A stretch of DNA of 64,000 nt from contig OY764216.1 of NCBI GenBank assembly GCA_963668315.1, positions 5,536,001 to 5,600,000 of the forward strand, in the 5' to 3' direction. Below the pieces are notes generated by a model. That model made no database searches. It had not been told where the DNA came from and worked only from the letters and a program-made list of their open reading frames with translations. Below are positions 34,220 through 64,000 of the stretch, in pieces. Position numbers and translations under genes: made by a program. The DNA comes from Spirochaetia bacterium. GTDB taxonomy: Bacteria > Spirochaetota > Spirochaetia > DSM-2461. Numbering within the stretch: the stretch's first letter is position 1; each line of letters begins with the position of its first letter.

Positions 34220-34227
34220 AGCCAGCA

Positions 34228-37190: not shown

Positions 37191-37246
37191 CGGTCAGTGA
37201 CATCCGCCCTGTAGTGGCAGTGAGACGCACACCCTCTTGTGGCAAA

Positions 37247-37316: not shown

Positions 37317-37334
37317 CCGCTACCCGATTTTGTC

Positions 37335-41105: not shown

Positions 41106-41240
41106 GACTCGTGCTCCCCATGGCGATTTGCAGATCGGAAATCCCCTGCCTGGATGCCCAGTATACACCGCCCGGGCAGCCCCAAGAACGGGGTGCTGGG
41201 TATTTCCTTGACGCGGGGGTGTGGGCAAAGTAGAACCTCA

Positions 41241-41316
41241 GTAGCGGTGGCATCCTTGTCGCCGGCACGCGTGGGAATAGTCGGGCCGCGACCGGCGGCA
41301 GGGATGCCACCGCTAC
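41241..41316. repeat. GTAG-type REP hairpin
   Basis: GTAGCGGTGGCATCC ... GGATGCCACCGCTAC perfect 15-bp arms extending inward. Confidence 0.8.
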
Positions 41317-41363
41317 AGACGATGACGGACCTTCCATTTCACGACGATTAAGGAACGCTTCCT

Positions 41364-42116: not shown

Positions 42117-42136
42117 GGGACGGCTGCCCAACTTCG

Positions 42137-42502
42137 GCCCGGCTACACCGCTTCAGCCCGGCTGCTTTGGTCACGCTGTAGGGAGTCGTGACAGCTCCAA
42201 GAACCGTTTGATTTGCAGCCGGGCTTTTGGGGTCGACAGGGATTGAGCAAAGAGCCGGGCTAGTTTCGGAACTTCGGCGGCCAGGCTGCCTTATCTGAGG
42301 TGGGTGATTCAAGAGCCCGGCTACACCGGTTCAGCCCGGCTGCTTTGGTCACGCTGTAGGGAGTCGTGACAGTTCCAAGAACCGTTTGATTTGCAGCCGG
42401 GCTTTTGGGGTCGACAGGGATTGAGCGAAGAGCCGGGCTAGTTTCGGAACTTCAGCGCCCAAGCGGGCTGAACTGAGGTGGCCAGTTCAAGAGCCCGGCT
42501 AC
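42137..42502. repeat. Tandem duplication of a 178-bp structured unit (2 copies + 10 bp)
   Basis: GCCCGGCTAC starts at 42137, 42315 and 42493; units contain alternating AGCCCGGCT/AGCCGGGCT arms. Confidence 0.9.
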
Positions 42503-42508
42503 TCTGCT

Positions 42509-42835
42509 TCAGGGGCACTTCTTCACCGGGCAAGGACTGCAGAAGCGAGGCAGGGGCTTCTTGCAGTAGTTGTCCGGGCACCATGTGAAGGAAAGGCATG
42601 GGATGCACGGCAGCGGCTTGGGACAGTAACAATTGGGAGACGGTGCGAAGCACTGGCACGGAATACACGGGATTGGTTTCGGGCAATAGTCGTCGCAACA
42701 TGCGCAAGGAACAGAAAGGCAGCGTGCGCAACGCAGCTCCTGGCCCAAAGGGGGCTGGCACGGTTGGCCCGCCCATGCGGTTTCGGCCAGGCCCGCGAAC
42801 AACAGTACGGCCAAACACCAGGTCAATCGGTTCAT
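42509..42835 (-). CDS. Small exported Cys/Pro-rich repeat protein
   Basis: Signal peptide ending AWA; three YC(P/K)KP(I/L)P repeats; 19 Cys in about 86 mature residues. Confidence 0.7.
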   Translation of the reverse strand: MNRLTWCLAVLLFAGLAETAWAGQPCQPPLGQELRCARCLSVPCACCDDYCPKPIPCIPCQCFAPSPNCYCPKPLPCIPCLSFTWCPDNYCKKPLPRFCSPCPVKKCP

Positions 42836-42891
42836 CGTAAGGACTCGCGAAGGGCTGCGGCGATCGGAATACCTCGGCAAGATGGTGGACA

Positions 42892-44547: not shown

Positions 44548-44819
44548 GGTCGTCTCTCCGCGACAATCGTGTTTCCAGGACTCATCGCTAGAATCGGCCT
44601 TGAGCATCCGATGTGCGCAGCATTTATCGCAAAGGAGGTATTTGCGATACAGTCCGCACGTGCCGGACAAGCGCTGCCTCGCGCACAGTCGTCAAGGTTT
44701 GCCTAACTGGCACGACAGGCGGGCCGGGAGAAGTGTGAGAAAGGAGCAAGAGAGCCGCCCACACGCGGACTGAGACGGTGTTTTCCGGTTCGCAAGAGCC
44801 GGGCCTACGCTCAAGTGAC

Positions 44820-45021
44820 GGGTGGCACGCTCAGAGCCCAAGCGATGGGCGTGGTGATCTAAGCGTCCACGCCCATCGCTTCGCTCTGGGCGTGCCACCC
44901 ACCGCGGAAGGCAATGTTCTGAAACGTCTGGCTCTTAGGGCAGGCCATCTGTTGGAGTCCGGCCTTTGGGTTGTCTTCCACACGCTAAAGCGTGGACTCC
45001 AACGCTCTGAGCGTGCCACCC
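44820..45021. repeat. Nested cluster of REP-like palindromes
   Basis: GGGTGGCACGCTCAGAGC..GCTCTGGGCGTGCCACCC hairpin (44820-44900), GTTGGAGTCC..GGACTCCAAC (44951-45003), third arm 45004-45021. Confidence 0.8.
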
Positions 45022-45043
45022 AGTTCACTGGACTTTCTGCGGA

Positions 45044-48000: not shown

Positions 48001-48205
48001 TCTGTTCGATGATCTGGGTGACGCTGTTCTCGACCGTCTCAGCCGAGGCTCCCGGATACATGCAGTCGATGGCGATCGATGGCGGAGCGATCGGGGGATA
48101 CTGGGATATCGGCAGATGATAGATCGCCAGGCACCCCAGCACCATCATGATGATGGCAATCACCCAGGCAAAAACGGGACGATCCAGGAAAAATCTCGAA
48201 AGCAC
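45044..48205 (-). CDS. RND efflux permease, AcrB/MexB (HAE1) type
   Basis: FFLDRPVFAWVIAI, AIGLLVDDAIVVVENVER, KNAILI, RFRPVIMTS. Confidence 0.96.
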   Translation of the reverse strand: MLSRFFLDRPVFAWVIAIIMMVLGCLAIYHLPISQYPPIAPPSIAIDCMYPGASAETVENSVTQIIEQKMTGFDDMLYLSGTSDSSGSSRIELTFKPGTDPDLAWAKVQNKLQLAMTSLPEVVQRSGVSVNKSTRNFLLIVGLTSEDGSMDGNDLRDYAQSNLEKVLARVPGVGEVMAFGTQYAMRVWLNPDKLTEYQLTVEDVIASLQNYNVEVSAGQFGGAPAVEGQRLNASIVVQNLLQTPDEFADIPVRINPDGSIIRIKDIGRTELGTEAYNIRVFFNGQPTAGLAIRQAPGANALDTANAIKAKLDEMSRYFPEGMKVIYPHETTPFIEVAIEEVVKTLFEAVVLVFLVMYLFMGNIRATLIPTIAVPVVLLGTFAVLGALDYSINMLTMFAMVLAIGLLVDDAIVVVENVERIMAEEGLPPREATAKSMDQITSALIGIGLVLSAVFGPMAFFPGSTGVIYRQFSVTIIAAMMLSVVVALILTPVLCATFLRPVVRGHEPSENAIFFLRPFFRWFDRIFFAIRDRYVGLVGHSLAKKLRYVFIYVVIVTAVGYLYVKLPSSFLPDEDQGMIFCQLSLPKGSTLEQTQEMADEVAAYFQEHEQEAVASCMTICGFSFAGRSQNSAMVFVKLKDWAERNRPELKAGPVAGRAMGALSSLRNAMFFAFPPPPVSELGNATGVDFQLVDRGGLGHLELMAARDQFLELARKDPRLNPHTVRANGLEDVSEYRIDVDKDAAGAQLVPITSIHTTLSAAFGSSYVNNFIKDGRVKRVYVQADAPYRMLPEDLERVYVRNQEGKMVPYSAFASGRWSSNSPRLERFNGFPSLNILAEPSAGHSTGEAMEALEEAVAQLPSGIGYDYTGISYQERMSTAQAPLLYAFSILVIFLCVAALYESWTIPFVNLLMLPLGVFGALAATSMRGLSNDVYFQIGFLTTLGLSTKNAILIIQFIQEEMRQGQGLIEATLSAVRIRFRPVIMTSLAFFFGTLPLALATGAGAGAMNGIGTAVTGGMLSATFIDLIFIPLFFVIVSAFFGAKAKPAPPDVQSA

Positions 48206-48260
48206 CGTGGGACTCCGTCAGTTCGATCAAGGGGGGCGGGGCGGGACCAGCCGATTGCGT

Positions 48261-49568
48261 TCAGAGAGCAGCTTGGGCCGTGTCGGCGGCGTCCGTCGTG
48301 GCCGCAGGTTGGGGGTTGAATGGGATTGCTTTGACCGTCGAATTCGGACGCGCCTTCTGACTGCCCTCGACGATCACCTGGTCACCTGCGGCAAGCCCGG
48401 AAGAGATCAGCCACTTATCACCCAACGCTCGATCCGTCACGAGCGCTCGTTGCTCCACTTTCCCTTCGGCGTCCACCACCAGGGCGGTTGGATTGCCTTT
48501 GGGATCACGATGCACGGCCTGTTGGGGAACAAGAATGGCTTGCTCATTGACGCCCTCCTCGACCACGGCGCGGACGAACATGCCCGGCAGGAGAATTCGA
48601 TCCGGATTGGGAACCTCGATCCGCACGATCACCGAACCGGTCGTGGGATCGACGGTCACGTCGCGAAACTTGAGGGCTCCCTCGATCGGAAAGACCGAAC
48701 CGTCCTCCAGGAGGATCTTGACCTTGTCCGTGCCAATGTCTTTCAACGAACCGTGGCTCATCCTCTGCCTCAGACGGGTCAGTTCCGCCGTCGATTGAGG
48801 CACGTCCACGTAGATCGGATGGAACTGCTGAATTGTGGCCAGAGGCGTTGCCTGATAGGCCGTGACGATCGCTCCCTCGGTCACCTCCGAGCGACCAATT
48901 CGCCCAGTGATCGGAGCAACGATCCTGGTGTAGTCCACGTTGATGCGGGCCGTTTCAACAGCGGCTTTGGCCTGCTCAATGGCGGCTTCGGCTGCCTTGA
49001 CGGCTTCACGTTGGCTCTCCACCTCGGCCTGGGCCTCCTTGAGAGCGGCATCGGCCACCTCGACATCGGCAACGGCCTGGTCGACTTCCATTGCCGAGAC
49101 CGCGTCCGTCTTCACGAGCTTCGTCTTGCGATCCCGATTGGTGATCGCCAGATTGAGGACCGATTCGAACTTCTTCAAACCGGCGATGCTCGCTTGAAGG
49201 GCCGCCTTGGCCTGCTCGGCACTCTGCTTCGCCGAAGCGGCCGTGGCCACCGCACTATCGTAGGCCGCCTGGTAGGGGGCGGGGTCGATCTGGTAGAGGA
49301 GATCCCCTTTTTCCACGTCGGCCCCTTCCGTGAAGAATCGCTTCTGGAGCAGTCCGTTCACCTGGGGACGGATTTCCGCGATCAGGAAGCCCGCCGTTCG
49401 CCCCGGCAGTTCCGAGGTGAGCAGCACCGATTGAGGCTCAACGGTGACCACCGACACTTCCGGCGGACCGCCCGGAGGCGGGCCTTGGGCCTCCCGATGA
49501 CAACCTGCCAACGGGAAAATCGCTGGCAGGACCAGCAAAACAGTAGCTCTTAACGTGTGCCGATGCAT
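48261..49568 (-). CDS. RND periplasmic adaptor, AcrA type
   Basis: LAGC lipobox, AEIRPQVNG, LYQIDP, APITGRIG, LLPGMFVRA. Confidence 0.95.
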   Translation of the reverse strand: MHRHTLRATVLLVLPAIFPLAGCHREAQGPPPGGPPEVSVVTVEPQSVLLTSELPGRTAGFLIAEIRPQVNGLLQKRFFTEGADVEKGDLLYQIDPAPYQAAYDSAVATAASAKQSAEQAKAALQASIAGLKKFESVLNLAITNRDRKTKLVKTDAVSAMEVDQAVADVEVADAALKEAQAEVESQREAVKAAEAAIEQAKAAVETARINVDYTRIVAPITGRIGRSEVTEGAIVTAYQATPLATIQQFHPIYVDVPQSTAELTRLRQRMSHGSLKDIGTDKVKILLEDGSVFPIEGALKFRDVTVDPTTGSVIVRIEVPNPDRILLPGMFVRAVVEEGVNEQAILVPQQAVHRDPKGNPTALVVDAEGKVEQRALVTDRALGDKWLISSGLAAGDQVIVEGSQKARPNSTVKAIPFNPQPAATTDAADTAQAAL

Positions 49569-49652
49569 GGAAGTGCTCCAGAAAACCAAAACCTGCTATC
49601 AGCCGATTAAACACCGCCGAGTCCGCGAACGGACCTCTCGCAATCATGCCAA

Positions 49653-50273
49653 TCAACCGATTTGTCTCTTCTCCACCGAAATCCCATTCAGGAACGTATT
49701 CAAAATCAACCGACAAAGCGCTTCCCTTTGTTCCGGCTCCTCAAGCGGTGGTCCGCTTCTCAGCACTCCCCGGCAGAGCCCGAAATACATGTGGGCCATC
49801 ATGGCCGGATCGCCTGGTTGAAATGCTCCTTCGGCAATCCCCTGGCGAAACAAACGCTCAAACTGCTTGCTGACCGCATCCGCCGTCCGACGCACCGAGG
49901 ACTGGAGGAGACTGTGGGCGTTCGCGTCATCGAAAAGGAGCCGGTGAGCTCTCAAATGCCGCGCTATGTGATCGAAAAACCAGCGAAGCTGTTCGGCCAG
50001 CTTCTCAACGGCCGGTTGCTTCCGGCCCGCCAACTCCTCAAAAACCTCGAAGACGGGTTCCGTCAACTTGGCATGAACAAACTCCAGGAGATCCCTCTTG
50101 CTGTGGAAATATCGATACAGGCTCCCTTTGGCCACCCGAGCTGCCGATGCCACCCGGTCCATGGTCATGCCTTCTGCGCCGTGTTGGTCGAGAACCGAAA
50201 TGGTCGCTTCGAAAAACGCCTCTTTCATCAGTCCGTCGACGGCCTGTTTTCGTATCTCCGTCAGTCTAGGCAT
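49653..50273 (-). CDS. TetR/AcrR family regulator
   Basis: TMDRVASAARVAKGSLYRYFHSKRDL HTH; first gene of the efflux operon. Confidence 0.93.
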   Translation of the reverse strand: MPRLTEIRKQAVDGLMKEAFFEATISVLDQHGAEGMTMDRVASAARVAKGSLYRYFHSKRDLLEFVHAKLTEPVFEVFEELAGRKQPAVEKLAEQLRWFFDHIARHLRAHRLLFDDANAHSLLQSSVRRTADAVSKQFERLFRQGIAEGAFQPGDPAMMAHMYFGLCRGVLRSGPPLEEPEQREALCRLILNTFLNGISVEKRQIG

Positions 50274-50301
50274 ATCCTCTCCCTTCTTGCCTCCTAAGTC
50301 T

Positions 50302-50330
50302 ATTTTGCCGACTGGCCAGTCAGTTTTCAA
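50302..50330 (-). promoter_or_regulatory. Efflux operon promoter with embedded putative TetR operator
   Basis: TTGAAA-N17-CAAAAT on minus strand; palindrome GACTGGCCAGTC (50310-50321) in the spacer. Confidence 0.65.
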
Positions 50331-50828
50331 GACCCCCGGGTCTAACAAGAGGGACGAATGCGCCTTTTCCGGTTAGGACAAGATTGTCGTACAGATTGTG
50401 CGGCCTGGGTCGACGTACCGCCCACCAGACAATTCTCCTCCAATGGGTGGGGATAGCGTACGCTTCAAGTTCGGTACGCTTTGGTGACCGGGCAGTCACA
50501 CGGGCTGGATGAATGGCGATCGCTTCCGTGCCGCGGGGCCAACCATCCCGTTCAACTACCCCAGAACATCTGGGACACCGGGGCGCTGTTCAAGGTTCTC
50601 CCATACCGCTTCAGGGGCAGACCAAGCCGGCTCGGTTCCCTGAACCACGCGTCTTGGGAAGGTCGCCCCAACAACGGAACACCGCCAGCCCTGGTTCTCC
50701 GGTGCGGCGGATTTCTCGGCATAAGTCGTGTGCCCTTCGATACTTGCTTGTCCTCTGGCGTTCTGGCTATACTGCAACCGCTTCACGGGGCAACGCACGA
50801 AACCACTTCCTTGGGCGGAGATATTCCC

Positions 50829-52388
50829 ATGCCACAAACAGTGAATTCACGGCGCCTTCTTCCTCGTCATGGGATGGGCACGCTCCTGGCCCGATTGGCG
50901 ATTCCCGTAGTGATGCTGGCCACCATCGCGGCGTCGATTGCCCCGGCGGAGTGCGGAGAGCCGGCGAAGGATGGCCGTGCCCCCAATTTTGTCGTCATCT
51001 ACATCGACGACATGGGCTACGGCGATATCGGGCCCTTCGGTGCCGAGGGATACGCGACTCCGAACCTGGATCGCATGGCGGAGGAGGGAAGGCGATTCAC
51101 CGATTTCTACGTGACCCAGGCGGTTTGTTCGGCTTCGCGGGCCGGACTGCTTACCGGCTGCTACAACGTGCGCGTCGGGATTCTCGGAGCCCTCAGCCAC
51201 AGAAACACCCACGGTATCAGCTCTGACGAGATGACGATCGCCGATGTGCTCAAGCAGAAGGGCTACGCCACGGCGTGCTACGGCAAGTGGCACCTTGGGC
51301 ACCACCCCAAGTTCCTGCCGACCAATCACGGATTCGACGAGTACGTGGGCTTGCCCTATTCCAACGACATGTGGCCAGGCCATCCCACGGCCGGGAAAAA
51401 CTACCCGGACCTGCCGTTGCTCCAGAATACGCACGTGATCGATGCCAACGTGACGGCCAAGGACCAGGAACAACTGACCACGCTCTACACGGACAAGGCG
51501 GTCGACTTCATTCAACGCAACAAGGAGCATCCCTTCTTCCTCTACGTTCCCCACTCGATGGTTCACGTGCCGCTCTACGTCTCCGACAAGTTTCGCGGCA
51601 AGAGCGAGCGAGGCCTCTTCGGCGACGTGGTGATGGAAATCGACTGGTCCGTGGGACGCATCCTGGAGACGATTCGGGAGAACAACCTGGAAAAAGACAC
51701 CATGGTCGTGTTCACCGCCGACAATGGTCCCTGGCTTAGCTACGGAGATCATGCCGGGACAGCCGGGCCGTTGCGCGAGGGCAAGGGGACGATGTTTGAC
51801 GGCGGGTGCCGCGAACCCACGGTCATGTGGTGGCCCGGGAAGATTCCGGCAGGAACCGTGTGCTCCACCCCCGCCATGACCATCGATCTGCTCCCCACAT
51901 TTGCCACCTTGATTGGCGCCCCCCTGCCGAAGAACAAAATCGACGGCAAGAACATCTGGCCCCTGATTGCCGGCGACAAAGGAGCGACCAGCCCGCATGA
52001 AGCGTATTTCTTCTACTATGGCAACCAACTGCAGGCCATGCGGATGGGCCAATGGAAACTCCACTTTCCCCACGGCTACCGGACCTTGTCGGGTCGCCCC
52101 GGCGGCACGGGCGGCATGCCGGTTCCTTACGATCAGGCAAAAATCGAATTGGCTCTGTTTGACCTGAACGCCGACATCGCGGAAACCACGGACGTCAAAG
52201 ACCAGCATCCCGAAATCCTGGCCAAGATGCAGAAAATGGCCGACGTGATGCGCGAGGATCTTGGGGACGGCCAGAAAAAGGGCAACGGGCAACGTCAACC
52301 AGGCCGCCTCCAACAGGATGACCTCCGCTTCGATTGGCAGCCCGGCAAACCCAACGACCCTGAACCGCACGTGGTCGATCCCAAGTAG
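50829..52388 (+). CDS. Formylglycine-dependent sulfatase
   Basis: PNFVVIYIDDMGYGD, CSASRAGLLTG, GKWHLG, ADNG; signal peptide. Confidence 0.95.
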   Translation: MPQTVNSRRLLPRHGMGTLLARLAIPVVMLATIAASIAPAECGEPAKDGRAPNFVVIYIDDMGYGDIGPFGAEGYATPNLDRMAEEGRRFTDFYVTQAVCSASRAGLLTGCYNVRVGILGALSHRNTHGISSDEMTIADVLKQKGYATACYGKWHLGHHPKFLPTNHGFDEYVGLPYSNDMWPGHPTAGKNYPDLPLLQNTHVIDANVTAKDQEQLTTLYTDKAVDFIQRNKEHPFFLYVPHSMVHVPLYVSDKFRGKSERGLFGDVVMEIDWSVGRILETIRENNLEKDTMVVFTADNGPWLSYGDHAGTAGPLREGKGTMFDGGCREPTVMWWPGKIPAGTVCSTPAMTIDLLPTFATLIGAPLPKNKIDGKNIWPLIAGDKGATSPHEAYFFYYGNQLQAMRMGQWKLHFPHGYRTLSGRPGGTGGMPVPYDQAKIELALFDLNADIAETTDVKDQHPEILAKMQKMADVMREDLGDGQKKGNGQRQPGRLQQDDLRFDWQPGKPNDPEPHVVDPK

Positions 52389-52614
52389 CCGGGAAACGCC
52401 CTGCCGGATTGTGCGAGCCTCCCCTGCCTTCCCTGCCCTTACAATCCGACCTTTCCCACTCAATTCCACGGCCCCCTCATCCCCCATGAGCTAGACTTTT
52501 TGGGCGGATCACTCCGATCCCCCTTGAAGTCTTGGTTCACGACCTGTGCGCACAATGCGCGTGGGGTTGTATGGAATTGGATTGCGGGCTTACCCCGCTT
52601 TGGGGAGGTGCACC

Positions 52615-53091
52615 ATGAATCGATCCCTATTGGCCGCCGTCGCCGTTCTTGCTTTTTCTGTGAACAGCGCAAACGCCCAGTCCTGGATCTTCCAGCCGGG
52701 AACGTACAGCAGAACCTCCGGACCGGCCGCTCTGCAGAATGCAGCCCCGGTGCAGTCTGCGACCGGCTCCCAATCCGTGGCGGGATCACTGTCCTCTCTC
52801 GGCTCTCAGACCGCGAACGGACCGAAAGCCTATGCTTCCTTCACGGAATCCCAGGCGGCCGCAGCGGCTACCATGCCCAAGCCTGCCTTCCAATGGGATC
52901 CCACGGGAATTCTCGGACGAGGCCAACGGTACGAGCAATGGAGTCATGAGGAAGCCATGGAAGCCAACCGGCTGGAGACCTATGCTCGGGGAGTGCGCGA
53001 TGCCGTGGGCATGCCTGTCTGGACCTGGAATCCAACCGCTTACCAGCCGCTTCCTCGGATCACCGCCCCGAAAGAAGACTTAGCGAATTAG
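52615..53091 (+). CDS. Exported hypothetical protein
   Basis: RBS GGAGG, signal peptide ending ANA; TAG stop overlaps the MITE left border. Confidence 0.65.
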   Translation: MNRSLLAAVAVLAFSVNSANAQSWIFQPGTYSRTSGPAALQNAAPVQSATGSQSVAGSLSSLGSQTANGPKAYASFTESQAAAAATMPKPAFQWDPTGILGRGQRYEQWSHEEAMEANRLETYARGVRDAVGMPVWTWNPTAYQPLPRITAPKEDLAN

Positions 53092-53252
53092 GCTCTGTTT
53101 CAAAACTCAAGGTGCCGGGCTTCGAGCGGCTGCACGAGCCATCCGCTGCGTTGTCCTGCATCGACATATGTCCAATATGCCTGCTTCGAACGCCTTGCGG
53201 ACTGGCTCGTTCGCTCGCTCTCGGGCCTGCGGCAGACTTTTCAAACAGAGCC
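53091..53252. mobile_element. 162-bp MITE, copy A
   Basis: Terminal inverted repeats GGCTCTGTTT / AAACAGAGCC flanked by TA on both sides; near-identical to 58737-58898. Confidence 0.88.
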
Positions 53253-53445
53253 TAGGACGCATCAGGAGTCCGACTCTTGAAATGGGGCGGCTCAAAGCGT
53301 TTACACGGCGGGTCGTGTATGGCATAACAGGAGGAAGCCTCGCGGCCTTGTTCATGACCGGAAACGCAAGCCCGGGGTGTTGGTGGGAACCAGGCGGCAA
53401 GACGCCGAGCGACACTCCTCTTTCACGGTTCGTGCGGTGTGAGCG

Positions 53446-55476
53446 ATGAATATCGCCTTCCAATGTCCCGTATGCGGGAAACGATACGAAGTGCCCGGAC
53501 ATCAGGCGGGCGCGCAGGTGATCTGTGCCGGCTGTCGGCGGACAATCCTGGTGCCACGCCCCGCGGCTTCCCCGTCGCTGGATCGCCCCCGCCGGACACG
53601 CCTTCCCCATAACGAGGGACCGAGCCGAACGGCAATCTTCGTGGCGGTGGGAGGCGCCGGTGCACTCGTGGCGGTGATCGCGGCTCTCGTCTTCGTTCTA
53701 ACCCGAGAGGACCAAACGCCGGCCTCGTCCGACCCGCCTGCCCAGGTGGAGACGCCCCCTGCGGACACGAACCGCCTGGCCTCACGCCTCGCCCCCCTGA
53801 TGCACGCCGACAAACGCTCCGAAACCGAACCGTCAAAGCCCCCGGAGAAGCAGGACACCCCGTCATTGGAGGCGGCTTCGGCCGACACGACAGAGACCGC
53901 CGACAAGAGTGACGAGTCGCCTTCGCCAATTCCGGCCCCCACCGGCGACGCTTATCCACTTCGCGTGGCCGATCACGAACCCGTCACTTTCGGCGCCGCG
54001 GGATGTCCCATCGTGGTCATCGGCTCGAAAGTCTGGGACTATCAGAAGAAAACGGTGCGCTCCACCCTCGACGGCAAGTACGACGATAGCAGTCTGACCG
54101 CCCTGTCGCCCGACGGACGCTATTTTGCGGCCACGGAACAGTCGGCCCACCACCGCAACAATCCCGTGCTCGTCTGGGACACCTCGACTGGCCAACTCTG
54201 CACACGCATCCCGGGAGATACGGCCGCCGGAGTCGGGCTTCTCCATCTGGCGGGCGGGCGAGCCTTCATCGCGCCCGCTCATTCCAACCGCTTGTATGTC
54301 TGGGACCTGGCGGAAGCTCGCGAGTTGAAGTCGCTCACATTGGCCGAAAGCCGGCTCACGCCGGGCAACACGGCGATCGCGCACAATGGACTGTATGTGG
54401 CAACGATCGAGGATCGCAAACTCGTCGTGATCAAGATCGAGACGGGCGAAACCATCGTGAAGATGCGGGCGCCAAAAAAACGCGAGAAGCCTCGGGGCCC
54501 CGAACTTCCACCCGGAATGGTCCGAGTCGATCACGGGGGCTGGATCGTCGATAACGTGGGAGAGGCCGCCGACGACAGCGAGTGCAGCTCGATCTACTCG
54601 TCATTGAAGGCCCTGGACTTCTCCCCGGACAGCCGTGAGTTGGTGGCTGTTTCCACATATCCCCAGCCCCGGGTCATCTGCTGGAACCACAAGGGACGTC
54701 GAGTGCTGGATGAAACGCTCCATTCCGACCGAGACTTGCACGAAACGCGGTCGATCCACTGGTTTGGCGAAAAAGACGCGTGGCTGCTTGGAACCGACCT
54801 CTTCGACCGTAAGGCGTCGAAGGTCGTGCTTTCCGTCCGCCGATCGTTCCTGCACACACCCACGATTCACGTTCAGGACGACAATCACCTGGTGGGCACG
54901 TTCTCCAGCAAACCCAACGAGATCCAGACAGTCGCAATCCCCTGGGACGCTATCCGGGCATCGCTCGAAGACCTGGAGAAAAAGGCTCCCGCACTGCTCA
55001 GCCCGGCCGAGCCGGTGAGTATCGTCTTCGAACTCGGCTCGCTCCGGGGCGACCAGAACAAGACCGTCCGGGAACTCGGCGATGCCCTCAAGGCGAGATT
55101 GGAGAAAGACGGGCTGGAAGTGGAAAGCGGGAAGAGCACGTTCTTCCGAATCCGTTTCTCGGAAAAGGCGGGTGACTCGGTCCCCGTTTACGAACGCCAG
55201 TCCCCATTCCATTGGGACGATCGCGATACGGGCCAGCGGGTTCATGAAGCCGAAGGCAAACTGGTCGTCGAACTGGTCGTGCCCGGCCGGGATCAGCCGG
55301 TCTGGCGAGATACCCTGGCCGCCGGCTCCGACTCGTCCTACGATGGCAACGTCACCGAACTGGTCGTCCGCGACAGCATGGTGGAAAACCTGGCCAACCG
55401 GATGGACGACCTGAACTTCCCCTACTTCATTCCCAAATCCGACGACCTGCTGGCGCTGCCGGTCGTCCTCCAGTGA
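53446..55476 (+). CDS. Zn-ribbon / TM / WD40-like beta-propeller protein
   Basis: CPVC...CAGC N-terminus, one TM, Pro-rich linker, ALSPDGRYFA, VWD, DFSPDSRELV repeats. Confidence 0.8.
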   Translation: MNIAFQCPVCGKRYEVPGHQAGAQVICAGCRRTILVPRPAASPSLDRPRRTRLPHNEGPSRTAIFVAVGGAGALVAVIAALVFVLTREDQTPASSDPPAQVETPPADTNRLASRLAPLMHADKRSETEPSKPPEKQDTPSLEAASADTTETADKSDESPSPIPAPTGDAYPLRVADHEPVTFGAAGCPIVVIGSKVWDYQKKTVRSTLDGKYDDSSLTALSPDGRYFAATEQSAHHRNNPVLVWDTSTGQLCTRIPGDTAAGVGLLHLAGGRAFIAPAHSNRLYVWDLAEARELKSLTLAESRLTPGNTAIAHNGLYVATIEDRKLVVIKIETGETIVKMRAPKKREKPRGPELPPGMVRVDHGGWIVDNVGEAADDSECSSIYSSLKALDFSPDSRELVAVSTYPQPRVICWNHKGRRVLDETLHSDRDLHETRSIHWFGEKDAWLLGTDLFDRKASKVVLSVRRSFLHTPTIHVQDDNHLVGTFSSKPNEIQTVAIPWDAIRASLEDLEKKAPALLSPAEPVSIVFELGSLRGDQNKTVRELGDALKARLEKDGLEVESGKSTFFRIRFSEKAGDSVPVYERQSPFHWDDRDTGQRVHEAEGKLVVELVVPGRDQPVWRDTLAAGSDSSYDGNVTELVVRDSMVENLANRMDDLNFPYFIPKSDDLLALPVVLQ

Positions 55477-55703
55477 TCTCTGCGCGACCGGTTCAACTTC
55501 TGCCCATGGACTTCTTCTGCGACGGGAATCCGACGTAAGAGCTGAAGTGGTCCTGACTTCGGCTGTTGGAACACACAACGCTCGACACAAGACCCCGCAT
55601 TCGTTAGAATGCCGTCACCGGCCGGAAGAAGGGGGGCGTTCCTTCTGGTGCTGGCACATTTTTGGGGATTGTTTCCAACCTTCTAGCGGGAAAGGCGGTG
55701 CTT

Positions 55704-57437
55704 ATGCGAAGAGCCATTTGCTGCTTCGGATGGGGGGTCGTGGCGATAGGCCTTCTGGGACCTGTCGCCCATGCAAACGGAGAGAGTTGTTCCCTTGAGA
55801 TGAAAAAGGTGGACACCTCGAACACGTCGAGCGACACCCGCCTCTATCGGGCAACCTCGTCTCAGAGTTTCTATCACCCTGTCGCACGCGGTGTCCGCGT
55901 CCGCGACAACTCGGCGCAAGAATTCGCGGAAACGATCAAGAAGGAGCCGGAGGCCTATCGGGCCGAGTTTCCCGTTCGGGGCGTCGTCAAGTTCGGGACG
56001 CTGAAGTTCGGCTATGCGCTGGACACATCGGTTGAACCGGTGAAAGAAAAGGAAGACAAGGCCGACGCCAAAGAGGCGGAGGAGAAGAAGTCCGAGAGCG
56101 TCCTGTCGGCCCTCTCCAAGGTTTTGACGGGTGACACCAAGAAGGCGGAGGAAGAAACGACGCCCTTCAAACCGGTGCCCTACGATCGCCTCTACATCGA
56201 CACCGATCGCGACGGCGACCTGACGGACGAAGAAGTGATCGAGGCTTCGTCGACGAGAAACGACAGCAACAACCGCTACTACTCATGCAACTTTCCCCGA
56301 ATCGATCTTCCGATTGAGGTCGAATCCGTTCCGGTCGACTATGCCATCACCCTGAGCACGATGGCCTACGGCGACGACAAGTTCGGCTATGTCAACGGTT
56401 CGTTCCAAGCCGGAGCCTACCGGGAAGGTGAAATCACCCTCGACGGCAAGAAACGCCGCCTCGTCCTGATCGATTTCAACGGCAACGGGCGCTTCGACGA
56501 CCCGTCGACCTTTCGTGATTCAGCCGGCTCCTCCAGCGAACGCGTTTACACCATCCGCGGAGATCGACTCTACGTCGACCCCGACATGAACGCCTCCGGA
56601 CGAAGCGCCTACGATGTGACCAGTGCGGACGATATGTTCGCCGTAGGCTCGTTGCTGTGCCTCGACGGGAGGTTCTACAAGATGACCGTCTCTCCTTCGG
56701 GGGACAAGCTGACCCTGGAGCCTGCCGACCTCGACGTGGGCTATGTGACAAACGCCGTAGGAAACTACCGCGCTGTCATTTACGGCGACCTCGGCCTCAT
56801 CAAAATCCAGTCGGACGAGTCGGGCAAGGCGCCCGTGCCGGCCGGTTCCTGGAAACTGATGAACTATACCCTCGATCGAACCGGGTATGAGGAGAAAAAG
56901 GCCAAGGAAAAGAACGAAGAACCGTCGATTCTGGGCGTTCTCACGGAAGCCCTGGGAACGGACGACAACGGAAGACCTCCCCGCCGCACCGTCGTGGCTG
57001 CCAGCGGGACGAACCGCTACAAGGCGGTGGATGTGAAGGAAGACGAAACCGTCGAGTTGCCCTTCGGACCTCCGTACCGCCCCGAGGTAGACGTCCAGTA
57101 TCGCAGAGGCGCCGACCAGGTGTCGCTGGGGATGTCCCTCGTCGGCTCGGCGGGAGAAGTCTGCACGAGCATGTACGTGAACGGGAGTCGTCCCGGGAAG
57201 CCCCAGTTCACCATCACCGATCCGGAAGGAAACAAGGTGGCCGAAGGCGTCTTCGAGTATGGCTGAGGCTTCACTTGCCGGTACTCGTGGCGAGTACCTT
57301 CGGACCCGGCCGACGAATACACGATTCAAGTTCGCATGAACGCTGGCCCCTTCAAGATCGACAGTGAACACAAAAGCGTCCTGAAGAAGAGCGAAATCGC
57401 TCTCCCGAAGGCTGCACAGGCCAGACCGGCCACTTGA
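55704..57437 (+). CDS. Exported protein, candidate selenoprotein (UGA at 57264-57266 read as Sec; ends at 57266 if not recoded)
   Basis: Signal peptide; DTDRDGDLTDE and DFNGNGRFDD Ca-binding-like loops; FEYG-TGA-GFTC then open frame to TGA 57435-57437. Confidence 0.75.
57280..57298 (+). promoter_or_regulatory. Candidate bacterial SECIS hairpin
   Basis: GGTACTCG-TGG-CGAGTACC perfect 8-bp stem starting 13 nt after the UGA; G at second loop position. Confidence 0.65.
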
Positions 57438-57449
57438 ACCAATCCCCTG

Positions 57450-57485
57450 ACGCCGGGAGGTCCTCGCGACTTCCCGGCGTTTTTT
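57450..57485 (+). terminator. Intrinsic terminator
   Basis: ACGCCGGGAGGTC-loop-GACTTCCCGGCGT followed by a T-run, 12 nt after the second TGA. Confidence 0.8.
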
Positions 57486-57639
57486 AGTCAAACGCACTTC
57501 CCCGCAAGCGGCGCTTTCGCCGACGGTCCGGGAGAGTGTCTTGCTCTCTACCTGAACTGAATTCCAGCGGGAACAGGGGATATGAGCGGAGCAATTCTGC
57601 GCCCACGCCGGCATCCCGTTCCCTGAGTAGGAGACGATT

Positions 57640-58719
57640 ATGCAACGTATCACTCTGACGGTCTGGATCCTGTTGATGTCTGTGACGGTTCCCTATGCGC
57701 TGAGCGAAGATTCAGCCGCGGAACAGAAAACTCCGGAACTGCCGATGCGGGACGACTTCGATTCGAAACTCTCCCTTCCCTGGAACATCGTTCGGCCTGA
57801 TCCAACCCATGTGTCGCTTGAATCGCATCCCGGCAAGCTGACGATCACGACCCAATTCGGTTCGATTCACATGGCCAAGACGAGCGCCAAGAATCTCTAC
57901 TTCCTCGATGTCCCCGACGGGTTGACGGACTTCGTGGTTACCACATGTGTGGAAGACTTCCTGCCCATAAAATCGTGGCAGCAGGCGGGCATCATGTTTC
58001 ACAACGATGACGACACCTTCATCAAATGGGTCCGCGACTACACCGGACAGGGCTATCCCGTTATGAACGTGAACTGGGAAATCAACGGGGAAAACAAGGG
58101 GGTCCACTCGTCCATCGAAGTAAGCAAGAAGCAGTTCTGGCTGCGGACGATCAAGCGAGGGAACGTCTACCAGTTCCTCGCGAGCGAAGACGGGAAGACC
58201 TGGACCACCCACTTCGTGGTTCCCTGGGGCGACGGCAAGTTGAAGAAGGTGGGCCTCGTCGCGAAGAACGGGCCAACGCAAGGCGACATGGAGGCCCAGT
58301 TCGACTTCTTCGAACTCCGCCGGCCCACCAAGCAGGAGTTGGACGATCCGGTCTATCCGCTACGCCGGGCCTTGTGGGGCAGTTGGAAAGCGGTCGAGCG
58401 GAAGATCAACGGAAAGGAGGTTGCGAAGGGGCCCGTCACGCAACTGAGCATTGTCCCAGGGCGGATGACCCTGAAAGAAAAACGCGCCCTGCCCTGCGCC
58501 TACACGGTTGACCTGACCGTAACCCCCAACCGCATTACGCTGTACCCCCTGAATCTCGGCGTCGGACCCCAGCTCAACGGACTGTTTGCTCTTGACGGCG
58601 ACACGCTCACGCTCTGCCTCAACCCCAAGCCGGGCGGGGAAACCCCCGGTACTCTGGAGCCCCAGGAGGGCGACGGGAGTCTGTTCATGAAGTTGGAGCG
58701 GGACAAGGCCGCGAAATAG
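57640..58719 (+). CDS. Exported ConA/DUF1349-like beta-sandwich plus TIGR03067-like domain
   Basis: RDDFD, WQQAGI, SEDGKTW, VGLVA, FDFF; LWGSWKAV...LDGDTLTLC...FMKLER; RBS AGGAG. Confidence 0.75.
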   Translation: MQRITLTVWILLMSVTVPYALSEDSAAEQKTPELPMRDDFDSKLSLPWNIVRPDPTHVSLESHPGKLTITTQFGSIHMAKTSAKNLYFLDVPDGLTDFVVTTCVEDFLPIKSWQQAGIMFHNDDDTFIKWVRDYTGQGYPVMNVNWEINGENKGVHSSIEVSKKQFWLRTIKRGNVYQFLASEDGKTWTTHFVVPWGDGKLKKVGLVAKNGPTQGDMEAQFDFFELRRPTKQELDDPVYPLRRALWGSWKAVERKINGKEVAKGPVTQLSIVPGRMTLKEKRALPCAYTVDLTVTPNRITLYPLNLGVGPQLNGLFALDGDTLTLCLNPKPGGETPGTLEPQEGDGSLFMKLERDKAAK

Positions 58720-58736
58720 CAGCCACCCACGAACTA

Positions 58737-58898
58737 GGCTCTGTTTCAAAACTCAAGGTGTCGGGCTTCGAGCGGCTGCACGAGCCATCCGCTGCGTTGT
58801 CCTGCATCGACATATGTCCAATATGCCTGCTTCGGACGCCTTGCGGACTGGCTCGTTCGCTCGCTCTCGGGCGTGCGGCAGACTTCTGAAACAGAGCC
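58737..58898. mobile_element. 162-bp MITE, copy B
   Basis: Same ends, TA flanks and orientation as copy A. Confidence 0.88.
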
Positions 58899-59386
58899 TA
58901 GGCCGTCAATTCGTAGACGGGTTCATCATCGGCTCGCGGCTCGTCCGCGAGCCGTTTCTCGTCTCGAACCCAGTCGTCGTGCGTGTAGATCACCACGCTC
59001 GTGTCCGTCTCCCGGATTTCCAACCGGTCGAGCCGAAAACCGAAGTCGGTGATCTCCGTGAACAGCTTGCAGGCCAGGTTTTCGACCGACGTGGGACCCT
59101 CGAACCGCTTCATCTTGAGACATTCGCCCGTCCGCTGGGTGTGATGGGCAAGCGTCTCATAGAGGGGATCGTTCACGTTGATCAGCAGGCCGTGGTCGTA
59201 CTCCTCCTTCAGAAAGGGCTCGATCACGTCGTCGAAGTCGCCGAAGAGGGTGGACACGGCGCCCTTGCGCTGCACCTCGAAGAAACACGAGATGCCGTAA
59301 CGATGCCCGTGGAGGTTGCGACACTTGTCGGCCAGTTCCTCGTTTCGATGGGCGGCGTAGAACTTGTAGTCTTTGCGAATGATCAT
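58898..59386 (-). CDS. queD: 6-carboxytetrahydropterin synthase (PTPS/QueD family)
   Basis: AAHR, CRNLHGH, YDH, TSVENLA, RET. Confidence 0.85.
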   Translation of the reverse strand: MIIRKDYKFYAAHRNEELADKCRNLHGHRYGISCFFEVQRKGAVSTLFGDFDDVIEPFLKEEYDHGLLINVNDPLYETLAHHTQRTGECLKMKRFEGPTSVENLACKLFTEITDFGFRLDRLEIRETDTSVVIYTHDDWVRDEKRLADEPRADDEPVYELTA

Positions 59387-59406
59387 CTCCGAGCCCTCCG
59401 GTTCGG

Positions 59407-60042
59407 TCACGATTTGTGAATCAACGCCATAATCTCGGCGCGGCTTGCCGGGTTCTCGCGGAAGACGCCTCGCAGCGCGCTGGTGACCGTCGAACTTCCG
59501 GGTTTCTTGACCCCCCGTATCGACATGCACGAGTGTTCCGCTTCGATAACGACGGCGACACCGGCCGTCTGCAGCTCGGTCTCGACCAGGTTGGCTACCG
59601 TTTCGGTCATCCGTTCCTGGACCTGGGGCCGCCGGGCGACCTCTTCCACGACCCGGGCCAGCTTGCTCAGCCCGGTCACACGCCCGTTGGGCAAGTAGGC
59701 CACGTGGGCCACGCCCTGAAACGGCAGCAGGTGGTGTTCGCACATGCTCGTGAACGGAATATCCCGTACCAACACAACCTCGTCGTAAGTTTCGGGAAAG
59801 GTCACGTGGAGATGGCGTGCCGGATCCGTCTTCAGCCCGGCGAACATCTCCGCATACATCTTGGCAACGCGGCGGGGCGTCTCCTGCAAGCCCGGCCGGT
59901 CCGGATCTTCTCCGACAGCCTTCAGAATCGTTCTGACTGCCCCCTTGATGGCCTCCAGGTCAACCGCTCCGGCCGAATCGGTTCCAGGGTTGGGACGGGT
60001 TCGAGCCAAAGGGGTTTCCGGATACTGCAACGCTCGCAACAT
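59407..60042 (-). CDS. folE: GTP cyclohydrolase I (type IA)
   Basis: [47 protein letters not shown]. Confidence 0.96.
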
Positions 60043-60126
60043 GACGATCGCTCCTTTGTTCGGTTTTCGCACGCATTCTTGGTCTCTTCTCCATCGGTAT
60101 CTGGAGCAATCATCGCGTCGCAGCTG

Positions 60127-60152
60127 TTTTTGACAACAGGAGTTGCTAAAAA
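60127..60152. promoter_or_regulatory. Imperfect palindrome upstream of folE-queD
   Basis: TTTTTGACAAC-AGGA-GTTGCTAAAAA, 9 of 11 positions symmetric. Confidence 0.45.
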
Positions 60153-60311
60153 TATGCGAGCGGAGCATGCTCCCTGTCTTGAAGTCTCGACGTAACCGAC
60201 TGTTAAATCGCTTGTTACGTCATCAAGAAGGCCGCGCCCAAGTCATCCTTCTTCGGGAAAGCCACATCCCGGAGAACGCTGGACATCTGAAAATTCGTCC
60301 AAACCGTTCGG

Positions 60312-61139
60312 CTATCGCGGTACGGGGATGTCGCGTTGAGAGAAGACCAGGCCCGCGAGGGCGTAGGCGATCAGGCCCACGCCGAGGAGGATGCTGTTGA
60401 GGTTGAGCGACGCGGTCCAAGGGTGGTCGCTCTCGAGGATCAATCCCGGGGGATCGAAGGCCGTGAGAAAGCTCAGGTAGCCCAGCCACTCGCCGGGCTT
60501 CCACATGGAGGCCACCATGTCGAGGAGGATTGATACGACAAGGAATCCACCGGCGAGGCACATGGTTCTCCATCGGTTCCGATCGAACGCGGAAAACAGC
60601 GTGGTGATCCCTGCGAAGCAGAAGGTCATGAAGAACAGGTTCACGGCGCCGGGAAGGAAGTCGGATGCAGCGACGGGGCCGCCTTCGAGCTGGACGGTGG
60701 CGACTCCCAGACAGTTCCCCAGCCACGTGCTTAGCGCGAGCAGGGCCGCGCCGAGGGAAGCAACGGTCCCCACGGCTACAACGATCGTATAACGCCGGAT
60801 GGGCAACGTGAGGAGCAACTCGTAGGTACCGGCCGAAATTCCCCCGCTCACGGCGGACGAGCCCCGGGCAATCGCCCAGCCGTAGCAGATCAGCAGGGTA
60901 ATCAGGTGCAGGTAGAGGATGCTGATTCGACCGCGGGGCGTGACGAACTGCTCCAGGGGGACGCCGACCAGATCCTGTACGAAGTCGGGCAGAAGCGTGA
61001 GGAAGCCGGCAATTGCCCCCATTTTGAAGAGGCTTTGGAACCAGACAAAAAACCAGCCAAACAGGAGCAGGAGGAGGCAACTCACCAGCAATTGGCCGCG
61101 GGCGTCGTTGATGGCCTTTTTCCAGACGGCAGCGTTCAT
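60312..61139 (-). CDS. ABC-2 type transporter permease
   Basis: Six hydrophobic segments, GTYELLLTLPIRR, C-terminal FSQRDIP. Confidence 0.85.
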   Translation of the reverse strand: MNAAVWKKAINDARGQLLVSCLLLLLFGWFFVWFQSLFKMGAIAGFLTLLPDFVQDLVGVPLEQFVTPRGRISILYLHLITLLICYGWAIARGSSAVSGGISAGTYELLLTLPIRRYTIVVAVGTVASLGAALLALSTWLGNCLGVATVQLEGGPVAASDFLPGAVNLFFMTFCFAGITTLFSAFDRNRWRTMCLAGGFLVVSILLDMVASMWKPGEWLGYLSFLTAFDPPGLILESDHPWTASLNLNSILLGVGLIAYALAGLVFSQRDIPVPR

Positions 61140-61303
61140 GATGAAAATGGGGGAGTGGAAGGAGTTGCCAATTCAGCCCATTCCATCAGTCTATCCGAAA
61201 GGGAGCATGGCGTCTTGGAGGACACCAGTCGGGTCGGTATGATGCGGCGACTGACGTTTTTTCTATACCAACTAGCATCCTTTCGATAGAAAGCCGGGTT
61301 CAA

Positions 61304-61807
61304 ATGGACTCCCCCCTGGAACTTGCGATCAAGCAGATCGCTTTCGCCCGATCGTACACGCTGGAATTAGTGGAAGGGCTTGAGGACGATCTTTGGTTTG
61401 TCATGCCCGAAGGGGCTGTCACGCACATTGGCTGGCAGATGGCCCATCTGGCCATGGCCCAGTACGGCCTGTGCCTTTTCAGGCAGCGAGGTCGTGCCGA
61501 CGTGGATCGAGAGCTGCTCCCGAGGGGGTTCGTTCAGAAATACGGAAAAGGCTCGACACCAACCCCCTCCGTGGAGGAGAATATCCCCCCCGAAGAGATT
61601 CGGGGCCTGCTTCAACGAATTCACGAGCAGGCGAACCTGGAGATGCCCGGGTTTTCCGAGGCGCAGTTGAGCGAGCCCATGGACATGCCCTATGCGGTTT
61701 ACCCGACCAAGTTGGGCAGCCTGCTTTTTTGCTCCCATCACGAGTTTCTTCACGCTGGACAGATCGGTTTTCTCCGTCGTCTCTTGGGCAAAGAGCCGAT
61801 TCGATAG
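61304..61807 (+). CDS. DinB/YfiT-like family protein
   Basis: HIGWQMAHLA, HHEFLHAGQI. Confidence 0.85.
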   Translation: MDSPLELAIKQIAFARSYTLELVEGLEDDLWFVMPEGAVTHIGWQMAHLAMAQYGLCLFRQRGRADVDRELLPRGFVQKYGKGSTPTPSVEENIPPEEIRGLLQRIHEQANLEMPGFSEAQLSEPMDMPYAVYPTKLGSLLFCSHHEFLHAGQIGFLRRLLGKEPIR

Positions 61808-61921
61808 AAAGACGGGTTTTCATGAAGATTGCCCGACGCTGGCCATTGATGGAGAATGGACCCACATTACGTCGGCTTGCGTAACCTGAACTAGTGCCCT
61901 GTCAACCTTGGAATTTTGGGG

Positions 61922-61948
61922 GCCACGGGCTGCTTGTCAGCCAGTGCC
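61922..61948. repeat. Single REP-like unit
   Basis: GCCACGGGCTGCTTGTCAGCCAGTGCC imperfect hairpin, related to the arm at 34693. Confidence 0.45.
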
Positions 61949-62039
61949 AACACGTTACATCGAGGCGCCCCCTTCAATTCGTAAACGTGGCGGAGCACTA
62001 GGGTTCCCTGACCTGGCAGATTTTGCGGAGAACGCCATT

Positions 62040-62822
62040 GTGCTGAAGCTCATCCAAGCACTCAATAGCCTCCTCGGGATGCTTCTGGCAGTTGTGCTCG
62101 TTGTCTTGCTGGCCGCGGGCGGCTGGTATGCCTACCAGAACTACTACGCCGCGAAATTCGAGTTGGAAGCCGAATTGGCAGCCAGTCAGGAGGAAGTCGA
62201 CCGTCTTGAAAAGGACCTGGAAACGAAACGCCATGAGATTGCCCGTCTGGGCACGGCCTTGAAGTTCATGAAGGTGGACCAGCGACTGGCCCGAATCACG
62301 GTTCTCTCCCAAAGCGGATCCGCCGAGGCGGGGAATCTCTCGACTCGCTTCAGCTTTGTCGAGGTCGATCGCCACGGCAAGCCCCTCGGCGATCCTCGCG
62401 TCTTCAACATTGAGGGCGACCTGGCCTACATCGATTCCTGGGTGATCAAGTTCGGCGACGAGTATGTGGAAAAAGGCGATTCGCTTCGAGCCGCCTCGAT
62501 CTGCCTCTTCCGCCGCGTATTCGGGGAGAAACAACTTCCGGCAGACGGCTTCCGCCTGGATGAAGAAGGAAGGCAGCCCTCCGTTTATCGGACGGGCGAG
62601 GAGATGTCGGACTTCGAGAAAGACCTTTGGTCCCGCTTCTGGGACTACGCCAATGATCCTGCCCTTGCCCAGGAGATGGGCGTTCGTGCGGCCCACGGCG
62701 AAGCGCCTTCAATCCAACTTCGCCCCGGAAAAAGCTACCGCATTGAACTCCGAGCCTCGGGCGGTATCTCCGTGGTCCCCGAAGAAAGCCCAAAGGTTCA
62801 GGATACCTCACTGCTCAACTGA
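62040..62822 (+). CDS. Membrane-anchored coiled-coil hypothetical protein
   Basis: TM, coiled coil, then a globular domain; GTG start after GGAG. Confidence 0.75.
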   Translation: MLKLIQALNSLLGMLLAVVLVVLLAAGGWYAYQNYYAAKFELEAELAASQEEVDRLEKDLETKRHEIARLGTALKFMKVDQRLARITVLSQSGSAEAGNLSTRFSFVEVDRHGKPLGDPRVFNIEGDLAYIDSWVIKFGDEYVEKGDSLRAASICLFRRVFGEKQLPADGFRLDEEGRQPSVYRTGEEMSDFEKDLWSRFWDYANDPALAQEMGVRAAHGEAPSIQLRPGKSYRIELRASGGISVVPEESPKVQDTSLLN

Positions 62823-63433
62823 CAATGATCGCGACTCCAGAAAGCTGCAATCCGACCGATGGACTCAACCATTTGGTCGAAACCCTTTGCCTTCGTCACA
62901 AATGCGTTCGCCCCCGCGGATAGACACGTCCGTGCTAACTCGTCATTGGTGGCAGACGTAAGCACGACCACGGGAATCGCGGCAAGCGTTGGCGTCTGTC
63001 GGATCTTGCAAAGCACCTCCATCCCCGGTATGTCCGGCAGGTTCAGGTCCAGGAGGACGAGCGAGGGCACGATCCGTGGCGGCGCGTCGTTCTCCGGCAG
63101 AAGGGCATCGACGGCCTCCGACCCCTGCTTGACCACGGTGACCGAGGGCAGCCGGGCCATGGCGAGGGAATGGGCGATCAAGGCTGCCTGATCCGGATCA
63201 TCCTCGACCACCAGGACAGGAAATTCCCGCCCGGAATCGGTCCCACTTCCTGCGCTCGCGGCAACGCGGTCTTTCGTGGCGTCTTCCGGGGCGATTTCGT
63301 CTCGCCAGATCCGAAGACTGCTGGGGGCATCGACACCGATCTTCACGTGCTGCTTTCGAATGGCAAGGACCTTGATCGTGATGTCCGGGCCAATTCGGAT
63401 CGATGAATCGCAATCGCGAGAGAGAACCAGCAT
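62798..63433 (-). CDS. CsrA/RsmA domain fused to a receiver domain
   Basis: MLVLSR...IRIGPDITIKVL...VKIGVDAP...IWRDEI, then VLVVEDD, LLDLNLPD, VLTS, GANAFVTK; RBS GAGGAGG. Confidence 0.9.
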   Translation of the reverse strand: MLVLSRDCDSSIRIGPDITIKVLAIRKQHVKIGVDAPSSLRIWRDEIAPEDATKDRVAASAGSGTDSGREFPVLVVEDDPDQAALIAHSLAMARLPSVTVVKQGSEAVDALLPENDAPPRIVPSLVLLDLNLPDIPGMEVLCKIRQTPTLAAIPVVVLTSATNDELARTCLSAGANAFVTKAKGFDQMVESIGRIAAFWSRDHCQLSSEVS

Positions 63434-64000
63434 GTCTCCCTCCTCTACTGCATGAAATGCCTCAGAGAAACGGCATTTGGAAAAACTCGCCCTGCTTTGG
63501 GAGACCCCAAATCATCCACCCCAACAACTCACCGAGATAAGCCCACCAGGATAAAATACCCTTGCCACATTCTAGGGGATCGCATGAGAACGGGCAATGT
63601 TTTTGTCTCCTCAAAAACGACTTTCTTGGTCAGACGTTTCACGGCAACTCCATCGTAGCCGAATGTATAGCGACTTTCTGGCTGGCCCTCGCCGAGACAA
63701 AGCGGAAGACACTCCGATTCGCCCAATTGCCCACGAGCCACAAAAGTGTCTGAAAGACATTCGGCTCCGTCCTTGAGCCATCGCTCGATTCCCCGTGCCG
63801 CCCGGATTTCGCCTAATGGCCCCCAAGGTCTTCGAGAAATCAAATGGATTCGGGGGTCGGCCAGAAACTCGCAGGGTGAAAAACGCACCGAATGCAAGAG
63901 GATTTGGCACGCCGATTGACTCGTCCTTCTTTCCCGTCGCAACACGACTCGTAGAATTCGCGTGCATTTCGGACAACAGCAAGGCAAAGTTTGCCCGGAC

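Follow-up and report, generated by a model that had tools for sequence, protein, structure and literature searches.

Coding sequence and flanking signals

The window analysed, a stretch of 64,000 nucleotides, carries on its forward strand a coding sequence (55704-57437) that opens with ATG at 55704, runs to the residues FEYG and a first in-frame TGA at 57264-57266, and continues through 56 open codons to a second TGA at 57435-57437. Translation through the first TGA gives a product of 577 residues with selenocysteine (Sec, U) at 521 and Cys at 525. The preliminary description had reported this TGA and its 56-codon extension, and re-deriving the positions from the sequence returned the same values. 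It had also anticipated that annotation would truncate the protein at FEYG, and the databases indeed carry a form of 520 residues. The features of the locus, and the segment of the source assembly (G000) in which it lies, are as follows.

55582..55610 (+): sigma-70-like promoter match TCGACA-17-TAGAAT, 10/12; a consensus match only, with 0.4 expected by chance
55704..57437 (+): full coding sequence, 577 aa, with putative Sec at 521; database form 520 aa (P0154)
55704..55778 (+): probable signal peptide, about residues 1-25, from the hydrophobic N-terminus and low pLDDT; cleavage site predicted
56199..56228 (+): conserved DxDxDG loop, residues 166-175, with D166, G171 and L173 invariant in 115/115 rows; presumably, from the motif, a calcium site
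56472..56501 (+): a further conserved loop, DxNxNG, at residues 257-266, probably another calcium site, with a weak GEVED match
57066..57410 (+): beta-sandwich domain of Ig/FN3-like type that carries Sec, residues 455-569; predicted fold, weak MG2 matches
57264..57266 (+): UGA probably read as selenocysteine, U521, from conservation across homologs
57276..57278 (+): Cys525 of the U-x3-C motif; Cys at +4 in 60/78 TGA rows
57280..57298 (+): bacterial SECIS hairpin within the coding sequence, from folding, covariation and RNAalifold
57449..57487 (+): intrinsic terminator-like hairpin and T run past the second stop; fold z -5.45
G000:5,428,914-5,624,497 (window 1..64000; no strand assigned): terminal 195.6-kb planctomycete segment holding the entire window, from composition, synteny and read contigs

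The sole terminator-like site in 55400-57700 sits past the second stop and not the first, as had been claimed, in a scan for which 2.5 such sites are expected by chance; the ortholog in L019 is likewise trailed by a matching terminator-like hairpin. The window copy is a lone gene that adjoins neither sel genes nor any regulator gene. Third-position GC is 0.68 in the extension, compared with 0.76 in the body of the gene and 0.55 after the second stop. However, among the 72 long ORFs of the 195.6-kb segment that end in TGA, a set that may include shadow frames, 35 have at least 38 open codons past the stop, and the extension alone is therefore weak evidence. A short repeated element with a frame opening MSNMPAS..LRTGSFARSRACGRL, which looks like an intergenic repeat, occurs at 58814-58860 and 53168-53215 of the window and again at G000:5,504,931.

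The hairpin proposed in the preliminary description is present in every detail: a perfect 8-bp stem (57280-57287/57291-57298), a UGG loop starting 21 nt past the UGA, and an early loop G. A stem of at least 7 Watson-Crick pairs with an early loop G at SECIS spacing was found in only one of the 72 long TGA-ending ORFs, namely this gene. The fold z of the hairpin region alone is modest (-0.64 to -2.96), and an Rfam search over the gene gave nothing near the gathering score. The bacterial SECIS consensus, as stated in the accessible part of PMC13188914, comprises a loop of 3-9 nt, G in the first two loop positions, a spacing of 16-37 nt and a folding energy below -7.5 kcal/mol; all four constraints given there are satisfied by the hairpin.

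The family and the recoded site

The 520-residue product has 1,223 representatives at 50% identity. Among 275 database homologs retrieved, 265 stop precisely at the site, 7 continue past it with other residues and 3 carry unrelated tails; none has Cys at the site, and all are named hypothetical protein bar one BlaR1 fusion. If the stop codon is read as selenocysteine, the databases consequently list the members cut short and miss the reactive site. An earlier class-level search with a single protein had matched 2/301 genomes, and profiles matched more: the domain was found in 39/401 genomes of the phylum of G061, a Thermoguttaceae metagenome-assembled genome (MAG), and in 48/121 Thermoguttaceae genomes with up to 10 copies each, an in-frame TGA being present in all 150 matches listed of 172 Thermoguttaceae domain matches. 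A metagenome scan, which returned one short spurious match (L056), used a pattern built on the Cys codon and thus says nothing on TGA forms.

The site was compared in 92 distinct rows of fetched DNA, excluding 4 more rows with a gap at the site. TGA occupies it in 78 rows, a true Cys codon in 2, and Cys followed by TGA in 1; 1 row is a spurious short match and 10 have other residues. Neither TAA nor TAG, which the preliminary description had named as arguing against recoding, occurs in any of the 92. The second stops of the same genes (n=72) are TGA in 34, TAG in 23 and TAA in 15, and the genetic code is therefore standard. A further 25 loci (22 new, 3 re-finds) all have the TGA and a full 7-pair stem, and the conservation of TGA that had been looked for among homologs is in this way confirmed. 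A sequencing error at the TGA was considered and is ruled out by this conservation.

The frame downstream is likewise conserved, as had been proposed. Of the 72 rows that have a second stop, 65 carry an extension of 38-56 aa and 7 a longer one, substitutions past the hairpin are mostly at third positions, and non-Sec homologs read straight through the same domain. The Cys homologs that were sought exist (L071 and L072) and form one clade of two in a poorly resolved, unrooted tree. The U-x3-C motif stands for most members: Cys lies at +4 from Sec in 60 of the 78 TGA rows, at +5 in 2 and at +6 in 6. It does not hold throughout, since 10 rows have no Cys within seven residues of the Sec site, and the U-C pair is thus not obligatory. 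Moreover, G467 has Glu at the site although Sec genes are present, and seven paralogs in G545 and G406 are without Sec; the fold consequently has Sec-independent uses. P0181 has lost both the Sec and the Cys residue, with Gly at the Sec site. At L126:642-1454 (-), in G648, a Cys immediately precedes the TGA in the same loop, a CU-like motif.

Covariation of the stem, which had been suggested as a check on the hairpin, is clearly visible in the 78 TGA rows, although these are related genomes and the counts are hence not independent. In these rows 80.4% of stem cells are paired, with double-sided changes at 8/8 pairs, in 88 cells against 22.5 in shuffles, and a stem covariation of 0.436 against ≤0.17 for slid partners. 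The outermost pair is weak, being unpaired in 47/78. RNAalifold, unprompted, returned the same helix with five of the stem's pairs. The mean stem is 7.2 bp in TGA rows; recoding them synonymously shortens it to 4.9, which is also the mean of 12 non-TGA rows. For the Arg of SWR rows, CGA is used in 43/43, versus 63/645 in the background.

Source of the DNA and the selenocysteine machinery

The source assembly consists of one contig of 5.62 Mb and is 96.95% complete. Its terminal segment has a GC content of 59-63% against 51% overall, and the tetranucleotide profile also differs. The join, at G000:5,428,913/4 (L127:4914/4915), falls within an ORF whose two halves do not belong together, and independent contigs break exactly there. 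No contig spanning the join was found in four runs of two samples from one study, both sides continuing into other sequence. Read depth in one sample was 60/183/189 on the left versus 4.3/17/17 on the right (about 11-14-fold), and the relation was reversed in the other sample (about 0-5 versus 39-98). The segment is syntenic with G061 at 84-88% nucleotide identity over about 26 kb, and the family was found in 0/60 relatives and in 0/250 genomes from the phylum of the host. The tmRNA tag of the host suggests a spirochaete. The window thus consists of planctomycete DNA that was joined in error to the chromosome of another organism. Horizontal transfer of the segment was considered and is ruled out by the unspanned mid-gene join, the depth shift that reverses between samples and the absence of the family from relatives. 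As the join is chimeric, other findings from the segment do not concern the host either. G000 is a species-representative assembly rated 1.62% contaminated, yet it carries 195.6 kb from another organism; the case shows that some 196 kb of foreign DNA can reside in such a reference.

The preliminary description had made its reading depend on Sec machinery in the genome, and this fared unevenly. No selA, selB or selD over cut-off and no tRNA-Sec were found in G000, while selA, selB, selD and tRNA-Sec are all present in the nearest relative, G061. Because the window DNA is misjoined, the source organism's own sel genes are not visible in G000, and their absence there is no refutation. Across carriers, selA was over cut-off in 34/35 TGA-bearing genomes versus 24/39 controls without a domain match, one of the 35 not having been checked in DNA and some controls being defined by a single-protein search; the remaining TGA-bearing genome has selB-family hits. 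Five further carriers have selA in 5/5. Conversely, selA, selB and tRNA-Sec were not found in the two Cys-form genomes, for which completeness is not given.

The proposed connection to sel genes also appears in gene order. A member lies within 9 kb of selA in 14/35 TGA-bearing genomes, and within 3.3 kb in 13, and members flank selC, selD and selAB. In G061, four paralogs surround selC and selD; in G1010, the ortholog of the window gene directly follows selA-selB. tRNAs with a UCA anticodon adjoining members were called tRNA-SeC by ARAGORN in 7 genomes, and that of G061 scored 81 bits on RF01852. Formate dehydrogenase alpha was not found at E 1e-100 in 17/41 family-bearing genomes, G061 and G237 included, most of which have selAB; in G431, a Cys-form genome, the formate dehydrogenase alpha gene is present without TGA. 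The family may thus explain why many planctomycetes without formate dehydrogenase retain selABCD.

In combination, conserved TGA and frame, covarying hairpin, Cys homologs and sel linkage were all found, and the selenoprotein interpretation first put forward is upheld: on strong comparative grounds, the UGA at 521 is almost certainly read as Sec. That it is instead a true stop, with a product of 520 aa, is scarcely credible. The lack of Sec genes in G000 and the frequency of long open frames past stops at this GC content would fit termination, yet G000 is chimeric, TAA and TAG are missing from the site although they make up 38/72 of second stops, and the downstream frame is conserved, with non-Sec homologs passing through the same domain. 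It is highly improbable, too, that the UGA is read as another residue, be it Cys via a suppressor tRNA, or Trp or Gly via a changed code. The Cys that two homologs have there and the Gly of P0181 could be cited for this, but TGA is the commonest true stop of the same genes, the adjoining UCA tRNAs are recognized as tRNA-SeC, and the hairpin fits the bacterial SECIS model.

Fold, possible function and relation to known systems

An AlphaFold2 model with Cys substituted for Sec (pLDDT 90.1, pTM 0.87) comprises a signal peptide, several beta domains with the two conserved Asp-rich loops, and a C-terminal sandwich. A crude hydropathy test gave a hydrophobic N-terminus in the query and in 212/224 full-length homologs, and the protein is probably exported. 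In the model, residue 521 is part of a loop rich in Gly that connects strands 511-519 and 525-530, and three strands (525-530, 538-544 and 557-561) are encoded past the UGA; hence only the recoded product has the whole domain. Comparison of the C-terminal domain with Ig/FN3-like folds, macroglobulin domains among them, gave Z up to 7.5 and none reaching 8, so that only the fold class is established. Foldseek with the whole model returned low-TM generic beta matches only, and sequence searches of the PDB gave nothing significant. The Sec domain is found, too, on short exported proteins, ahead of membrane segments or of a lectin domain, and as part of fusions; the Sec site sits in a mobile Ig-like domain used across many architectures. 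Fusions to SHD1 domains were seen in P0090, P0096, P0112 and P0129.

In G061 and G1078, selAB face genes for a methyltransferase and for a double-cubane reductase, which in G061 is over the NF040772 cut-off, with two related subunits and an activase; the same operon has selC and genes for membrane-anchored members, a fused SelD, a small membrane protein, a NapH-like ferredoxin and a long member. The double-cubane block was found in five genomes (G061, G237, G559, G738 and G1078); the stretches fetched from G574, G545 and G465 did not contain it. Neighbours in other carriers differ, and include corrinoid methyltransferases and an ABC transporter. ECF sigma genes lie directly upstream of both Cys forms.

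The neighbourhood yielded further observations. The small membrane protein by selC ends C-P-T-TGA-[VM]-K-stop in 4/4 loci (L049:14196-14663 (-), L162:14624-15016 (+), L167:2193-2549 (+) and L170:16798-17253 (-)), with an 8-bp hairpin about 22-24 nt past the TGA that extends into the next gene. It matches no Pfam or NCBIfam model and is a candidate second new selenoprotein. In these sel operons, SelD has an N-terminal extension rich in Cys and, at the C-terminus, an AhpD/CMD domain; this form is encoded at L049:14944-16572 (-), L162:12757-14424 (+) and L133:272-2362 (-). An ORF at L170:8372-9166 (-), in G1039, lies near family members, has a partial AhpC/TSA match and ends in TGA with an open frame beyond; it is probably a peroxiredoxin-like selenoprotein.

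Sec recoding together with a redox or ligand role in the broad sense is likely. More specifically, we tentatively propose an envelope redox or soft-metal/selenium-binding site tied to the anaerobic selenium operon with its double-cubane reductase, the contents of that operon being the reason for favouring such a role. The product would be an exported selenoprotein of 577 aa from a planctomycete of the Thermoguttaceae. SelB would bind the hairpin 21 nt past the UGA and Sec would be inserted at 521, whereupon continued translation would complete the last three strands of the C-terminal Ig-like domain and place Sec in the glycine-rich inter-strand loop, usually with Cys four residues on. The envelope-facing reactive selenolate could then capture or redox-cycle a compound of selenium, of a metalloid or of a soft metal, and the Cys would be a second ligand or the resolving residue. 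The site may be reset by the NapH-like membrane ferredoxin that the sel operon encodes, and may in turn feed the cytoplasmic methyltransferase and the ATP-driven double-cubane reductase of that operon; this mode of working would resemble that of the binding proteins with Sec in the SAO system, although the fold differs. A wider scheme is doubtful. In it, the mobile Ig-like Sec domain would be the first prokaryotic example of its fold class and, for many planctomycetes, a main client of their Sec machinery. With the C-P-T-U protein, NapH-like ferredoxin, fused SelD, methyltransferase and double-cubane reductase, the domain would form a pathway, as yet undescribed, that leads from envelope to cytoplasm and handles selenium or organometal compounds.

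The redox or soft-metal role is ranked ahead of two others that likewise assume Sec insertion. The residue might only stabilise an Se-S bond, or be passive, in a surface or S-layer-like beta-protein that neither catalyses nor captures. The best structural neighbours, which are S-layer, adhesin, receptor and macroglobulin Ig-like domains, are in keeping with this, as are the many paralogs and the membrane-anchored and lectin-fused forms; a purely structural part is nevertheless unlikely, for Sec is retained without a nearby Cys in 10/78 rows, Cys would suffice for a structural bond and yet only 2 Cys forms were found, and the linkage to sel genes is tight. It is about as improbable that the domain senses redox state or selenium supply at the envelope and signals via membrane transducers, with termination at low selenium itself switching the protein off. 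Fusions to BlaR1-type M56 domains (P0145 and P0181) and the ECF sigma genes beside the Cys forms point in that direction, and truncation at the UGA does remove three strands; both M56 fusions, however, are without Sec, and the window copy lacks an adjoining regulator.

The claim that the protein resembles no known selenoprotein family agrees with our searches. No NCBIfam family (June 2026) matched the window protein (P0002) at E 0.1, and the NCBIfam selenoprotein models gave no match to 76 domain rows, with one unrelated weak hit overall; this comparison extends to those catalogued families that have a model in the libraries searched. No published account of the family was found in the literature searched, and an earlier mention as an unvalidated candidate is possible. 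In the accessible part of PMC12013277, the Cys-homolog filters of deep-Sep are said to risk missing families with rare Cys homologs; here such homologs make up 2/92 rows.

MG2 (PF01835) had no hit on the window domain and matched 3/76 rows weakly (best E 1e-4), hhalign to an MG2-bearing protein gave a probability of 86% over 53 columns, and VIA-align to macroglobulin domains gave Z 6.1-6.6. Unlike MG2/alpha-2-macroglobulin proteins, the family has no alpha-2-macroglobulin architecture, and its Sec loop is new. As far as the accessible part of 10.1101/2022.07.06.499078 goes, the SAO selenoproteins SaoX, SaoB, SaoP and SaoL were found truncated at UGA about 50 residues before their true end, and the distribution of double-cubane proteins is reported to follow that of SelD and SAO loci. 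The present family is similar in its UGA truncation near the C-terminus, in being a putatively exported or membrane Sec protein, and in often having a double-cubane reductase and activase adjacent. It differs in fold, in its planctomycete hosts and in having no nine-gene sao cassette in the loci read; Sao protein models gave no hit on the family or on 13 neighbouring proteins. The family provides a concrete system in which to examine how double-cubane enzymes may be connected with selenium.

With catalogued bacterial selenoproteins the family shares the UGA, a consensus-fitting stem-loop, Cys homologs and sel genes in its carriers. In contrast to thioredoxin-fold UxxC selenoproteins, Sec and Cys are spaced as U-x3-C, and the model of the domain consists of beta structure throughout, without UxxC at a helix start. 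U-x3-C is likewise absent from the 119 families of Table 1 in the accessible part of PMC13188914, where some rows give no motif, and the family departs from those entries in this motif and in placing Sec on an Ig-like sandwich and not on a thioredoxin fold. It thus appears to be a real selenoprotein made by standard decoding, of an apparently undescribed family on a new fold class, and would add a large family, held truncated and unnamed in public databases, whose fold and motif lie outside that 2026 catalogue as far as its accessible part extends.
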